Origin: an uncultured Planctomycetia bacterium
GTDB taxonomy: Bacteria > Omnitrophota > Gorgyraeia > JACOVV01
DNA length: 64,000 nucleotides
NCBI GenBank assembly: GCA_964372345.1
Contig: CAYJQR010000001.1
Location: 36,825-100,824, forward strand
Direction: 5' to 3'
In this document: positions 1,037 to 6,945 of the stretch, one piece after another
Position numbering within the stretch: the stretch's first letter is position 1
Layout: each line of letters begins with the position of its first letter
The notes under the pieces: generated by a model
Database searches by the model: none
What the model was told of the DNA's origin: nothing
Seen by the model: the letters and a program-made list of their open reading frames with translations, nothing else
Program-made: the position numbers and the translations under genes

Positions 1037-1474
1037 ATGGAAAATGGAAAATGGAAAATGGAAAATGGATTTAGGAATTTGTTTTTCCCATTCTCCATTC
1101 TCCATTCTCCATTCTCCAAGCGAGGATTCTCTCTCATCGAGGTAATCCTCGCCCTGGCGATTCTGATCTTGGGACTCGTCGGAGTGATTGTTCTATTTCC
1201 CGTCGGGCTCCGCGCGAGCCGTCAGGCGAGTGTCTTAAGCGAAGAAACCTTGCTGGCGCAGAGTCACCTGGAAGAAATAAAGACTTTGGGGTATGAGAAA
1301 ATTGACCCCAAAGAGGGAACCTATAAGAATTTCAAGTGGCAGATCGCGTTTGAAGAGACTGCTCCTGAAGGAATCGCCGATCCCTCCGGGCTTCGCAAAG
1401 CGATCGTGACGGTCAGATGGAACCAGGGAGGGCAGGAGAAGAAGGATAGTTTCGTGACGATGGTGTCTCAATGA
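1037..1474 (+). CDS. Minor pseudopilin (GspI-like) with a prepilin cleavage/methylation motif preceded by an unusually long leader.
   Basis: Carries KRG|FSLIEVILALAILILGLVGV, a class III signal peptide with an N-methylation site. The 24-31 aa leader (MENGKWKMENGFRNLFFPFSILHSPFS) is entirely encoded by a heptamer-repeat element. Size after cleavage is about 115 aa. Confidence 0.7.
   Translation: MENGKWKMENGFRNLFFPFSILHSPFSKRGFSLIEVILALAILILGLVGVIVLFPVGLRASRQASVLSEETLLAQSHLEEIKTLGYEKIDPKEGTYKNFKWQIAFEETAPEGIADPSGLRKAIVTVRWNQGGQEKKDSFVTMVSQ
1039..1118. repeat. Heptamer inverted-repeat miniature element, copy A1: (GGAAAAT)4, a 20-nt spacer, then (CCATTCT)4.5.
   Basis: A direct 7-mer array is followed by an imperfect reverse-complement 7-mer array. 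The same architecture recurs at 1487-1562 and 5358-5473. Confidence 0.85.
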
Positions 1475-2121
1475 GTCCAAATACAGAGAATGGAAAATGG
1501 AAAATGGAAAATGGATTTAGGAATTTGTTTTTCCCATTCTCCATTCTCCATTCTCCATTCTCCGCTTTTACATTGCTGGAACTTCTGATCGCCATGACGA
1601 TTCTAGTGGTGATTCTAACCAGCACTTACACTCTTTTTCGCAGCGCCTCGGGGGCCTTCTTAAAAGGGGAAGTGCGGTCGGAACTGTATCAGCAGGTCCG
1701 GATTATCTTTGGTGTGGCGGAACGCGAGATCAGCTCGGCGCTCCCTGTGCCGGGAAAGGATCGTTATTTCCAGGGAAGCGAAGACCGGCTCTTCTTTATC
1801 TGTCCCGTTTCTGAACAGGACAAAGCGGACTTAAGAGAGGTCGGTTACTGGTTGTCGAATGAAGATCAGACGCTGATGCGCCACGTGGATACCGACCCGG
1901 ATTTTGATTTCACCACGGCTGACACGAATGAAGAACTTGGGGTCCATATCCAGCGGCTGGCGTTTTCTTATTATGACGGAGAAAAATGGGGAAACTCCTG
2001 TGATTCGCAGATCGAGCAGGGGCTCCCGAAGGCGGTTAAAATGGAAATAACCATTGGGGATAGTCGTGGGAAAGAGAAGAGTGAGTTCTCAACGATTGTG
2101 CGGATTGAGACAAACCAGTAA
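1471..2121 (+). CDS. Minor pseudopilin (GspJ-like).
   Basis: Has a prepilin-like segment AFTLLELLIAMTILVVILTSTYTLF with Glu at +5. Its leader is again encoded by the heptamer element. The -1 residue is Ala/Ser rather than Gly. There is a 4-nt overlap with the upstream gene. Confidence 0.65.
   Translation: MSPNTENGKWKMENGFRNLFFPFSILHSPFSAFTLLELLIAMTILVVILTSTYTLFRSASGAFLKGEVRSELYQQVRIIFGVAEREISSALPVPGKDRYFQGSEDRLFFICPVSEQDKADLREVGYWLSNEDQTLMRHVDTDPDFDFTTADTNEELGVHIQRLAFSYYDGEKWGNSCDSQIEQGLPKAVKMEITIGDSRGKEKSEFSTIVRIETNQ
1487..1562. repeat. Heptamer inverted-repeat miniature element, copy A2.
   Basis: Sequence is agaatggaaaatggaaaatggaaaatggatttaggaatttgtttttcccattctccattctccattctccattctcc. 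The core is nearly identical to A1, including the ggatttaggaatttgttttt spacer. Confidence 0.85.
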
Positions 2122-5350: not shown

Positions 5351-6945
5351 GAAAAACGGAAAATGGAAAATGGAAAGTGGAAAGTGGGAAAGACAAAAAT
5401 CCATTTTCCGGGTTTTATGTCTTGTTGATTGTTTTTGCTTTATCCATTTTCCATTCTCTATTTTCCATTTTCCCTGTTTACGCCGAGGCCAGCAAAAGTT
5501 CCAAGTTCACTCTCGATGCCGGAGGATTTGTTTCTGGAGGGGGCAGCGCTGAAAGCCCGACAATCAAATCTCAAGCCGGAAACCTGGGAGATTTCGCGGG
5601 AACAACCACCACCGCGACTTCCTCTGGAACTTCCTCATCGGGCGCGGCTTCCGCCGTGACTACGGTGAATCCGGGGCTTCTCCAGGTCATCGTGGGAGAA
5701 GGCGCTCATAGTGATTATCCTTTTGATATCAAGGAAATCATTGCTAAGGATTCTCCCATGGGAAGCGCCATCACTGCCGCCGACTGGCAGAAGGATAATG
5801 ATCCCTATTTCTACTGGACGGTTTATGGTCCGCCGGAAGGAGTCATCGGTTACAGTTTTGCTCTGAACGCGATTCCCGATGAAACAGTGGATGTGAGCGA
5901 TTCCAGTTTTTCCTATGCCGGGAAGAATATCTCCGACGGCAAGCATCTTTTCCGTGTCATTGCCCAGAGCGCCGCCGGCAAATGGGGAAGAGAAGGGGCT
6001 TTTGAAATCTGGATTGACGCGACGGCTCCATCGGTGGTTTCCTTTAATCCCGGGAACAAGGCCCTGCTGAATACGGCGACACCCCAGATCCAAGTCGCTT
6101 TAAAAGATGCTGACAGCGGCGTCAACCCGGATTCCGTTGTTTTAAAGGTGAATCGCGCCACGGTTGAGGTCCCTTTTGACGACCAACAGGGGGGCGTTAC
6201 TTACACGCCTGCTTCTCCGCTAAAAGAGGGGATTAATTCGATCACGTTCGACGCGCGGGATAAAACAAATAACGTCGCGGCGACTCTAGTCTGGAGCTTC
6301 ACCATTGATACCCAAGCGCCCGGCGGAAGCGTCGTCATCAATAACGGCGACGCGTCCACCACTTCTACCTCAGTCAAATTGACGCTCGCTGCGGAAGACG
6401 CGACGACTTCGGTTAAAGAGATGATGATCAGTAATCAACCTGATTTCGGCGGGGCGCGCTGGGAACCTTTCGTTGGTTTGAAAGATTCGTGGACACTCTC
6501 TCCGGTCAGCGGGGAACGGGCTGTCTATGTTAAATTTAAAGATGAAGCGGGCAATGAATCCGGCGCCTACAGCGACCCCATCGAATTGGTGATCATCGCT
6601 CCGGACACAACCATCACCAGCGGCCCTTCCGGGGTCACCGATCAGACAGCGGCGGCTTTCACTTATTCCGCTTCTGAGTCCGGCAGTTCTTTCAGGCGTC
6701 AAATTGACGGGGGGGATTGGTCGGAGTGGGGGACTGAAACCTGGGTGACGTTCACCGATCTTAAAAGGGGAAATCACTATTTCGGCGTCAAGGCCGGTAA
6801 AGATGTGGATGGCAATGGCACGATTGACGCCGACGAGGAAGATCCGACCCCCGCGACGCGAAGCTGGACGATCAGTGAAAGCGGCGGAACAGAAGCGATT
6901 AACTTACCACCGGAAAAGCCAGTGAAATATTGGTACAAAGAATAG
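5347..6945 (+). CDS. Secreted protein with Ig-like/Big-like beta-sandwich repeats. Possible pilus-associated adhesin or T2SS substrate.
   Basis: The N-terminal signal peptide is largely encoded by heptamer element A3 (hydrophobic core FYVLLIVFALSIFHSLFSIFPVYAEA). The sequence is Thr/Ser-rich with repeated modules reminiscent of bacterial Ig-like domains. The ATGA start overlaps the upstream gene. Confidence 0.5.
   Translation: MRKTENGKWKVESGKDKNPFSGFYVLLIVFALSIFHSLFSIFPVYAEASKSSKFTLDAGGFVSGGGSAESPTIKSQAGNLGDFAGTTTTATSSGTSSSGAASAVTTVNPGLLQVIVGEGAHSDYPFDIKEIIAKDSPMGSAITAADWQKDNDPYFYWTVYGPPEGVIGYSFALNAIPDETVDVSDSSFSYAGKNISDGKHLFRVIAQSAAGKWGREGAFEIWIDATAPSVVSFNPGNKALLNTATPQIQVALKDADSGVNPDSVVLKVNRATVEVPFDDQQGGVTYTPASPLKEGINSITFDARDKTNNVAATLVWSFTIDTQAPGGSVVINNGDASTTSTSVKLTLAAEDATTSVKEMMISNQPDFGGARWEPFVGLKDSWTLSPVSGERAVYVKFKDEAGNESGAYSDPIELVIIAPDTTITSGPSGVTDQTAAAFTYSASESGSSFRRQIDGGDWSEWGTETWVTFTDLKRGNHYFGVKAGKDVDGNGTIDADEEDPTPATRSWTISESGGTEAINLPPEKPVKYWYKE
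5358..5473. repeat. Heptamer inverted-repeat miniature element, copy A3. It is longer than A1/A2 and has exact terminal inverted repeats GGAAAATGG ... CCATTTTCC.
   Basis: Sequence runs ggaaaatggaaaatggaaagtggaaagtgggaaagacaaaaatccattttccggg ... ccattttccattctctattttccattttcc. The interior has a nested palindrome (aagacaaaa / ttttatgtctt). Confidence 0.8.

Follow-up and report, generated by a model that had tools for sequence, protein, structure and literature searches.

Tandem heptanucleotide repeats have been noted in bacteria since 1990, in Calothrix (Mazel et al. 1990), and since 2007 across genomes (Mrázek et al. 2007), both as cited in two later papers (PMC4692102, PMC4679880). GGGAATC and GGGGAYT repeats are present in Xanthomonas and Nostoc, where about four units are preferred and inverted pairs occur (PMC4692102), and Beggiatoaceae carry TAACTGA repeats (PMC4679880); as portrayed in those papers, bacterial heptamer repeats are regarded as intergenic and have no established mechanism or function. 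The DNA analyzed here is a stretch of 64,000 nucleotides (the window; contig CAYJQR010000001.1, positions 36,825 to 100,824, forward strand) from an uncultured bacterium of the phylum Omnitrophota. TRF and exact-run scans located three (GGAAAAT)n–spacer–(CCATTCT)n elements in a pilus operon, at 1034–1118, 1489–1563 and 5353–5473, the third of them degenerate. What is new here is the presence of heptamer repeats inside reading frames, those of essential genes included. With moderate confidence, we read the elements as heptanucleotide repeats and hairpins resembling short tandemly repeated repetitive (STRR) sequences, which were inserted as blocks and survive only at permissive coding sites.

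The elements share with the described long simple sequence repeats (LSSRs) and STRRs the tandem 7-nt units, a genome-wide excess of period 7, lineage-specific units and a preference for about four units, as well as occasional inverted stem-loop pairs, sites near start or stop codons, and variation in length and sequence among close relatives. They differ in that the known repeats are mainly intergenic and under-represented in coding sequence whereas 15 of 17 here are translated in frame, in the many units found in one genome, and in the host phylum, Omnitrophota, for which full-text searches listed no paper describing heptamer repeats. Rickettsia palindromic elements (RPEs), which Ogata et al. 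reportedly described in 2000 as in-frame insertions in protein-coding genes, are similar in being short in-frame inserts, palindromic in some of the elements here, also in housekeeping genes, with a tolerated peptide and the character of selfish DNA in a compact genome; in keeping with this likeness, the ORFs of the window are continuous, and Pfam domains and PDB alignments span the inserts. However, RPEs are 100–150-bp families of unique sequence rather than 7-nt arrays, occur in another taxon, have no known preference for leader peptides that are cut off, and are not expected to be related in sequence to the present elements. Repetitive extragenic palindromes (REPs) and bacterial interspersed mosaic elements (BIMEs) of enterobacteria are likewise repeated imperfect palindromes at cistron boundaries in operons, and their mRNA stem-loops can alter the expression of neighbors, but REPs are extragenic, have a conserved family sequence and are linked to REP-associated tyrosine transposases (RAYTs), whereas here the hairpins are translated and the units vary by site. 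Miniature inverted-repeat transposable elements (MITEs) and REPs are marked by a target-site duplication, or by a conserved terminal motif with a cognate transposase; comparison of filled with empty sites revealed no target-site duplication, and a scan of ~54 ORFs of the window turned up no transposase, RAYT or reverse transcriptase. Tandem repeats of Borgs, which give rise to disordered protein regions, are similar in evolving fast, in their recent independent origin and in adding peptide segments to proteins, as far as the abstract of the Borg study describes them (PMC9879509); here 7-nt units are in frame only as whole blocks, and the inverted pairing seen here does not feature in that abstract.

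The window begins with the 3' part of a GspF/PilC-type gene ending in a TAA stop at 1032–1034, which is followed by four plus-strand genes and, downstream of these, by a PilM/PilN fusion and more assembly genes. An earlier reading of the same DNA (the original prediction) had described the elements as start-plus-leader cassettes at the 5' ends of GspI-like, GspJ-like and Ig-like secreted genes. Their placement was borne out by the scans, all three lying within the first ~45 codons of ORFs 1037–1474, 1471–2121 and 5347–6945, although gene 1 is GspI-like by motif, size and position only since Pfam gives N_methyl alone. Features of the operon are listed here, with an arrow marking the processing site of each protein.

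1034–1069 (+), left array of element 1, (AAAATGG)5.1, which holds the gene 1 start ATG at 1037–1039
1037–1474 (+), ORF of gene 1, 145 aa; Pfam N_methyl only (residues 28–50)
1070–1087 (+), spacer of element 1 and hairpin loop, the same as the element 2 spacer; TAG in one of three frames
1088–1118 (+), right array of element 1, (CCATTCT)4.4, nearly complementary to the left array, each unit having one A·C mismatch on the plus strand
1118–1129 (+), end of the native gene 1 leader and cleavage motif, AAG CGA GGA↓TTC, encoding K R G↓F(SLIE)
1471–1485 (+), native start of gene 2, ATG overlapping the gene 1 stop (ATGA), then SPNT; 14 of 15 positions identical in the orthologous genome L002
1471–2121 (+), ORF of gene 2, 216 aa; Pfam T2SSJ and N_methyl (31–52)
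1486–1563 (+), element 2; left array from 1486/1489 to 1515, spacer 1516–1533, right array 1534–1563
1564–1581 (+), gene 2 cleavage motif, GCT↓TTT ACA TTG CTG GAA, encoding A↓FTLLE
2054–5350 (+), GspK-like ORF, 1098 aa; Pfam T2SSK and HHH_3
2123–2153 (+), (ACGTACG)4.4 in the GspK-like leader, …TYDVRRTTYDESG↓IALIIVV; absent in L002, net +21 nt
5347–5484 (+), signal peptide region of the Ig-like protein; ATG overlapping the GspK stop (ATGA), predicted cleavage VYA↓EAS
5347–6945 (+), ORF of gene 4, Ig-like secreted protein, 532 aa; Pfam Big_13, bacterial Ig-like domains
5353–5473 (+), element 3; left (GGAAAAT)2(GGAAAGT)2 at 5353–5391, spacer 5392–5442 encoding the h-region, right ATTTTCC-type array at 5443–5473

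All four arrays of elements 1 and 2 are 100% perfect and the two elements differ at one base, with the common spacer GGATTTAGGAATTTGTTTTTCC; element 2 consists of (AATGGAA)3.9 at 1489–1515 and (CCATTCT)4.3 at 1534–1563 and is translated as ENGKWKMENGFRNLFFPFSILHSPFS. In the degenerate element 3 the arms (5353–5391 and 5443–5473) show 83–87% matches. With at most one mismatch, GGAAAATGGAAAAT has 18 matches in the window against 0.12 expected. The array in the GspK-like leader (2123–2153) was not among the elements described earlier; the start of this gene is probably the conserved GTG at 2081. As had been claimed, GGAAAAT and CCATTCT arrays contain no stops on either strand and encode the repeats GKWKMEN (forward array) and PFSILHS (right array). 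Absence of stops is in itself unremarkable because 50% of all possible heptamers share it, whilst only 4.3% are stop-free and also bear an ATG. The claim of a start codon in every frame holds for the left array of element 1, where ATGs at 1037, 1044, 1051, 1058 and 1065 cover all three frames, but the whole element is open in two frames and not three, the spacer having TAG in one.

Elements 1 and 2 are followed directly by prepilin processing motifs. KRG↓FSLIE of gene 1 and SA↓FTLLE of gene 2 show G or A at −1, one of F/M/I at +1, a hydrophobic helix and E at +5, with N_methyl scores of 23.6 and 25 bits (cut-off 21.2), whilst the GspK-like motif ESG↓IALIIVV is without E5. GspK proteins typically lack this residue. 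The leaders of genes 1 and 2 measure 30 and 32 residues, rather than being short, basic and 5–10 residues long; those of the closest relative have 4. There is no ATG, GTG or TTG between element and cleavage motif in either gene, so the elements must be translated if the prepilins are functional, which argues for coding elements rather than untranslated leader sequence only. The start of gene 1 (ATG 1037) lies in the first repeat unit, 2 nt past the GspF stop and behind GGGAGGGG, whilst that of gene 2 (ATG 1471) lies 15 nt upstream of its element, overlapping the gene 1 stop, and that of gene 4 (ATG 5347) is also upstream, overlapping the GspK stop (ATGA). In GspI-, GspJ- and GspK-like genes the insert would lie between the native start and the G/A↓F(I) processing site, giving a leader of ~30 residues which prepilin peptidase may then clip, leaving the mature pilin unchanged; in the secreted protein it would become part of the Sec signal peptide. 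Being removed from the mature protein, the leaders of prepilin and Sec substrates would be permissive sites and ideal safe harbours, which may account for inserts in four consecutive genes. No prepilin peptidase gene was found in the window.

Evidence that the elements are insertions comes from orthologous loci. When one genome per species was scanned for the pattern, four metagenome-assembled genomes (MAGs) had the hairpin, and a metagenome scan guided by the GspF protein yielded 49 further loci. L002, a Candidatus Omnitrophota MAG (JACOVV010000065), is orthologous to window positions 4–5353 at 70% identity; the closest relative, L005, shows ~91% nucleotide identity; L055 and L067 belong to one genome (100% identity over 4.8 kb), which may differ from that of L005. 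Genes 1 and 2 of L005 are without the element and read GTG AAA GGG GGT↓TTT (MKGG↓FSLIE) and GTG AAG CGC GCA↓TTT (MKRA↓FTLLE). These empty sites with canonical 4-residue leaders indicate that the element is dispensable and an insertion, and run counter to the reading of it as a start-plus-leader cassette. The pre-pilM spacer is 6 nt in L005 vs 74 in the window, the L005 GspK leader has an unrelated C/G-rich hairpin instead of (ACGTACG)n, and its secreted gene has a shorter (GGAAAGT)n…(ACTTTCC)n hairpin; in L006 the secreted protein has an ordinary signal peptide and no arrays. In L002, gene 1 has the left array only, its entire 11-residue leader (MENGKWRMENG↓FSLIE) being array-encoded, gene 2 has a full element with copy numbers identical to those of the window despite 30% divergence, GspK has no array, and the secreted gene carries other heptamers (GTTCAGG…CCTGTCY).

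Over a wider clade sample of 21 orthologous first pseudopilin genes (55–58% GspF identity), inverted-array hairpin leaders of 25–38 residues were present in 12 and canonical leaders of 4–9 residues in five. Units in these leaders include CAGGGGG/GCCCCAC, GAGCTTG/CTCCAAG and AAGACAC/GTGTCTT, with one case of period 8; most are without ATG and encode unrelated peptides. An ATG overlapping or adjoining the GspF stop was in frame through the element in all 11 orthologues inspected by eye, and the overlapping starts of genes 2 and 4 are kept as GTGA or ATGA in orthologues with or without an element. Arrays were absent from more distant relatives (at most 45% identity). Together the elements appear to form a lineage-wide family, typically of 4–5 units (~30 nt), single or as inverted pairs around a 15–55-nt spacer.

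The presence of an element at the orthologous site of the independent MAG L002 speaks against an artefact of assembly or sequencing in low-complexity DNA, an outcome that would have undone the original prediction. The one hint of such an artefact is a same-strain Logan contig (L054, ERR3478686) which begins at ~5620, in the secreted gene and ~150 nt past element 3, suggesting that the repeats may break short-read assemblies. L002 was assembled independently, similar elements recur across dozens of metagenome contigs of independent origin and reading frames are intact through all elements; we therefore give this explanation practically no credence.

The same comparisons bear on the original idea of a portable start-plus-leader cassette, taken here as an adaptive module that would supply, behind a purine-rich tract, ATGs in all frames together with segments resembling the n- and h-regions of signal peptides and so create or rescue exported genes. 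Part of this idea stands: elements do encode leaders, the gene 1 start is in the first unit, the gene 1 leader of L002 is wholly array-encoded, and (GGAAAAT)n, having ATGs and no stops, is called as small ORFs in many genomes. In gene 4 the left arm gives the charged n-region and spacer plus right arm give much or all of the hydrophobic core; in L005 (15204–15290) the core of the secreted protein, FVFVFSTFHFLLSTF, is encoded wholly by spacer and right arm. The n- and h-region part of the claim is upheld for gene 4. Against the cassette, most leader elements of relatives lack ATG in their units and encode unrelated peptides. Further, native starts upstream of elements 2 and 3 are conserved, empty-site orthologues keep normal leaders, one of the three frames of the element is closed, and cytoplasmic enzymes carry the same array in frame, where a start or leader role is impossible. 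In prepilins, moreover, the membrane signal is the mature N-terminal helix and not the leader. The existence of empty-site orthologues largely refutes the cassette and leaves it, by our estimate, very improbable; the element is not a start-codon donor or a dedicated signal cassette. As an observation in its own right, the arms of element 3 bracket the hydrophobic core of the Ig-like protein's signal peptide.

Insertion is not confined to leaders. The window contains about 17 elements in 64 kb, 15 of which lie inside ORFs in the sense frame with Pfam matches flanking them on both sides. Those outside the four operon genes include the following.

6945–7019 (+), intergenic hairpin before pilM/N, (AGCGKTM)3 … (CTGTACC)4.4, the latter at 6981–7011
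15859–15935 (+), lnt hairpin, in frame, (GCTAGGA/GCTGGGA)…(CTCCYAG), in-frame TAG changed to TGG
16269–16357 (+), second lnt element, in frame, (GGAAAAT)2 with 15-nt palindromic units and (AGAAAAT)2
21137–21169 (+), lolD (GAAAATG)4.7, in frame, +30-nt block at the native seed ACGGAAAAC
31189–31248 (+), intergenic palindromic units TCAGCCAAAGGCTGA… upstream of ispD, within a ~130-nt insertion absent in L055
31973–31994 (+), (GTCCCCT/GTACCCT)3 at the junction of the ispD 3' end and ispF; L055 has a different 218-nt insert
37234–37264 (+), holB (ACTCGAG)4.4, in frame, a 13-residue loop insertion with a diverged form in L055 and L057
38478–38539 (+), metG (MetRS) site A, (GAAAATG)3 with a 30-nt palindromic module at 38499–38528 and GAAAATGGAAA
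38848–38931 (+), metG site B hairpin, in frame, (GCTARGA)…(CCAGCTT), with other units in relatives
39327–39357 (+), metG site C, in frame, (GAAGGACGAGGGAC)2.2
56200–56231 (+), thiL (GGAAAAT)4.6, in frame; L055 has (GGAAAGT)3.7 there
61512–61546 (+), ahcY (AACTCRA)5, in frame; L055 has (ACGAAGT)4.7 of equal length

Alignment with PDB structures placed the arrays in LolD, MetRS (three sites), ThiL, AhcY and HolB as extra loop residues relative to the solved structures. No insert is present in lolD of L067 or of three further close relatives; the window is longer there by exactly 30 nt. At metG site A, L055 has (GAAAGTG)4.3 without the module, L057 has (AGAAGCA)4.6 and P0124 has nothing, and at metG sites B and C and in ahcY different relatives have different units of the same length; as the metG loops A, B and C all behave alike, recurrent occupation of a site by unrelated heptamers is not specific to leaders. 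In GCTAGGA arrays the in-frame TAG reads TGG in both lnt and metG, which at the level of sequence is direct evidence of translation of the inserts and of the purging of stops from them. Bypassing of the inserts by the ribosome, or their excision from the RNA, was also considered and ruled out, all inserts being in frame and stop-free, with stop purging evident. As the genome is nearly all coding and its genes overlap, the only copies to persist are in-frame, stop-free and structurally harmless ones; the permissive places are enzyme surface loops, gene junctions and, above all, N-terminal leaders.

The arrays form a class with characteristic periodicity and length. Exact period-7 runs number 13 in the window against 0–5 for every other period from 4 to 12, and in 193 kb of the clade 66 period-7 arrays were counted vs 2–22 for any other period. 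Array length has its mode at 30–32 nt (35 of 86 arrays), with 4–5 units in 62 of the 86, a peak that simple slippage should not produce. Window and L055 arrays are 66% identical, against 89% overall, and at three unlinked sites, thiL and metG site A (L055) and the secreted gene (L005), GGAAAAT of the window corresponds to GGAAAGT in the ~90%-identical relatives. A recently acquired 13.3-kb defence island (39817–53089), absent from L055, contains no arrays (P≈0.01), suggesting that the arrays are native to the lineage. New copies may have arrived as blocks (21, 30 or 78 nt), seemingly where the target already had a short match to the unit, and arrays would then be replaced or homogenized quickly. 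A conserved 5' boundary motif, AGAACAGAA, was tried as an element feature and rejected; it is found in three arrays and not in others and is better explained as native seed sequence.

Given filled and empty sites, quantized insert sizes and genome-specific unit switches, the origin of heptamer repeats becomes testable by comparative genomics. The annotation of Omnitrophota genomes is affected as well, through over-long leaders, arrays called as spurious small ORFs and odd enzyme loops, and leaders that are cut off come to look like safe harbours for selfish DNA.

The unit length, not a multiple of three, together with the position of elements at 5' ends of surface and secretion genes and the varying presence, absence and unit content among relatives, could also suggest a phase-variation switch, in which slipped-strand gain or loss of 7 nt toggles pilus and secretion genes. 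In the first two respects the elements resemble the simple sequence repeat contingency loci of Haemophilus and Neisseria, where units that are not multiples of three lie at the 5' ends of genes for surface structures, but here no out-of-frame alleles were seen, arrays are short (4–5 units) and the same arrays occur in essential genes. Switching of metG, holB, lolD or lnt would be lethal, all alleles observed are in frame, length changes are in-frame blocks of 21, 30 and 78 nt rather than single units, and element 2 copy number is equal in the window and L002 despite 30% divergence. With arrays in essential genes, no allele out of frame and stable copy numbers, phase variation is very unlikely.

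All three elements of the operon were predicted to fold as stem-loops.

Element 1, mRNA −34.9 kcal/mol, z −2.3; antisense −47.2
Element 2, mRNA −34.5 kcal/mol, z −4.8; antisense −51.4
Element 3, mRNA −53.5 kcal/mol, z −6.1; antisense −45.1

Computed folding of the mRNA strand (−33 to −53 kcal/mol) is thus consistent with the hairpin that the original prediction had proposed, although elements 1 and 2 fold better in antisense because the mismatch that recurs in their units is A·C in the mRNA and a G·U wobble in its complement. This asymmetry was used to look for selection on the mRNA stem and gave no sign of it, eight of 25 clade hairpins being better in sense and 15 in antisense. Elements 1, 2 and 3 and the lnt and metG site B hairpins are palindromic, the single arrays of lolD, thiL, ahcY and metG site C are not, and a preference of hairpins for junctions and of single arrays for internal sites is a trend only (Fisher P=0.11). 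Rfam returned no matches over the whole window at gathering thresholds, and a permissive scan of 900–7200 returned only generic hairpins resembling miRNA precursors, far below threshold.

A different reading of these structures is that they are regulatory hairpins selected at cistron junctions, where the stem might tune how much of the minor pseudopilins is translated, through forced coupling or damped initiation, or might protect the upstream message, and the peptide is incidental. Several findings that count against our preferred reading of tolerated block insertions point this way. The arms of element 2 are identical at 59 of 62 positions between the window and L002, including 19 of 21 third codon positions (P≈9e-8), in genes 70% identical and around a spacer identical at 10 of 16 positions; a purely neutral passenger should have diverged across such genes. 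Elements at gene starts or junctions number 7 of 17 vs ~11% expected (P≈0.001), and five of the seven are in the pilus operon. Arms co-vary, GGAAAAT pairing with ATTTTCC in the window and GGAAAGT with ACTTTCC in L005, and selection for pairing could explain these compensatory changes. It further counts against tolerated insertion that the window holds no transposase or other candidate enzyme, and that we infer both the insertion mechanism and cleavage of a 30-residue leader from sequence comparison.

The junction reading also gains from stems of −33 to −58 kcal/mol, which 12 of 21 orthologues have at this position although the sequences are unrelated, and from L014, whose three arrays (in 21 kb) are all placed at gene boundaries of the operon. 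On the other side, the nearest relative L005 does without elements 1 and 2, ordinary short leaders occur in 5 of 21 orthologues, lnt and metG contain identical arrays and hairpins in internal loops, away from any junction, no sense bias of G·U over A·C was seen (elements 1 and 2 folding at −47 and −51 kcal/mol in antisense vs about −35), arrays generally evolve faster than their flanks, and no Rfam family matched. The selected junction hairpin is a serious rival on the strength of element 2 arm conservation and junction enrichment, if on our estimate a rather unlikely one. On the preferred reading, too, the hairpins would have a side effect. In the operon each stem starts 0–15 nt past an AUG which adjoins or overlaps the preceding stop codon, and would damp independent initiation and probably make low-abundance cistrons depend on translational coupling; if junction hairpins tune coupled translation in this way, they would represent a new means of setting subunit ratios in a secretion-pilus operon.

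One doubtful but specific proposal for the origin of the block insertions is that a genome-specific copying process, such as template switching, ectopic conversion or a trans-acting templated inserter, writes and rewrites arrays as ~30-nt blocks of a master heptamer at microhomology seeds, and that inverted pairs at junctions of the pilus operon were co-opted as translated stem-loops which enforce coupling. Pointers to such a process are the unit switch at three unlinked sites, the peaked array length, the one-step +30-nt insertion in lolD, the element 2 arms frozen across 30% divergence, and the occurrence of GGAAAAT…CCATTCT hairpins in other phyla (L001 1015–1090, L003 5406–5463, L004 4668–4744). 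If real, it would define a coding-compatible class of mobile repeat. The other-phylum hairpins were found in frame in a 611-aa Saprospiraceae ORF and a 402-aa Anaerolineales ORF and, in a Tannerella MAG, just ahead of a gene start. A census of the peptide (GKWKMEN)6 returned mostly 'hypothetical proteins' of 40–70 residues from many phyla, which say little on insertion contexts because they are arrays called as spurious ORFs; tiny hypothetical ORFs made of (GKWKMEN)n are annotated in Ignavibacteria, Moraxella bovis and Siphonobacter. A scan of viral contigs for (GGAAAAT)3 gave eight matches, several in giant-virus MAGs, and no lead to a vector.

Other repeats were observed beside the heptamer arrays. 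A second kind of mini-insert consists of 15-nt units (6-nt stem, 3-nt loop, 6-nt stem), TCAGCCGAAGGCTGA, TCAGCCTCAGGCTGA, TTCGCCTCTGGCGAA and CCCRCCGGAGGCGGG, at 16284–16342, 31189–31248 and 38499–38528 of the window, each unit amounting to five in-frame codons; the metG copy, a 30-nt pair of units, sits inside the GGAAAAT array and is missing in L055. At 16555–16625, lnt contains an in-frame direct repeat of 31 nt (×2.3, perfect), CCCAGCTCCCTTCGACTTCGCTCAGGGCAGG, and a similar sequence, CCTTCGACTGCGCTCAGG, is present in the leader region of L016. The ~90%-identical relatives have a separate family of junction hairpins, CCCTCCCC…GGGGAGGG, in the GspK leader (L005 11953–12004), between ispD and ispF (L055 4829–5046) and between lysS and lolC (L067 8766–8827); none occurs in the window, which suggests that repeat families are genome-specific. 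The tmk-holB junction has (CTGTACG)5 in L055 (8922–9004) and (TTTTGAC)8.4 in L057 (3957–4014), so junctions outside the pilus operon are also colonized, whilst tmk and holB of the window overlap and lack an array.

The defence island occupies the metG-tatD interval and encodes an AAA_14/DUF4143 ATPase, a DUF2130 protein, HsdR, HsdM, HsdS and a GIY-YIG nuclease, with an AbiEi/AbiEii pair between the type I restriction-modification genes and a 1099-aa TIR-domain protein; in L055 tatD directly follows metG. Toxin-type genes are also present among the housekeeping genes of the window, encoding a BrnT ribonuclease toxin and two PIN-domain proteins (16975–17286, 30106–31143 and 35282–35689).

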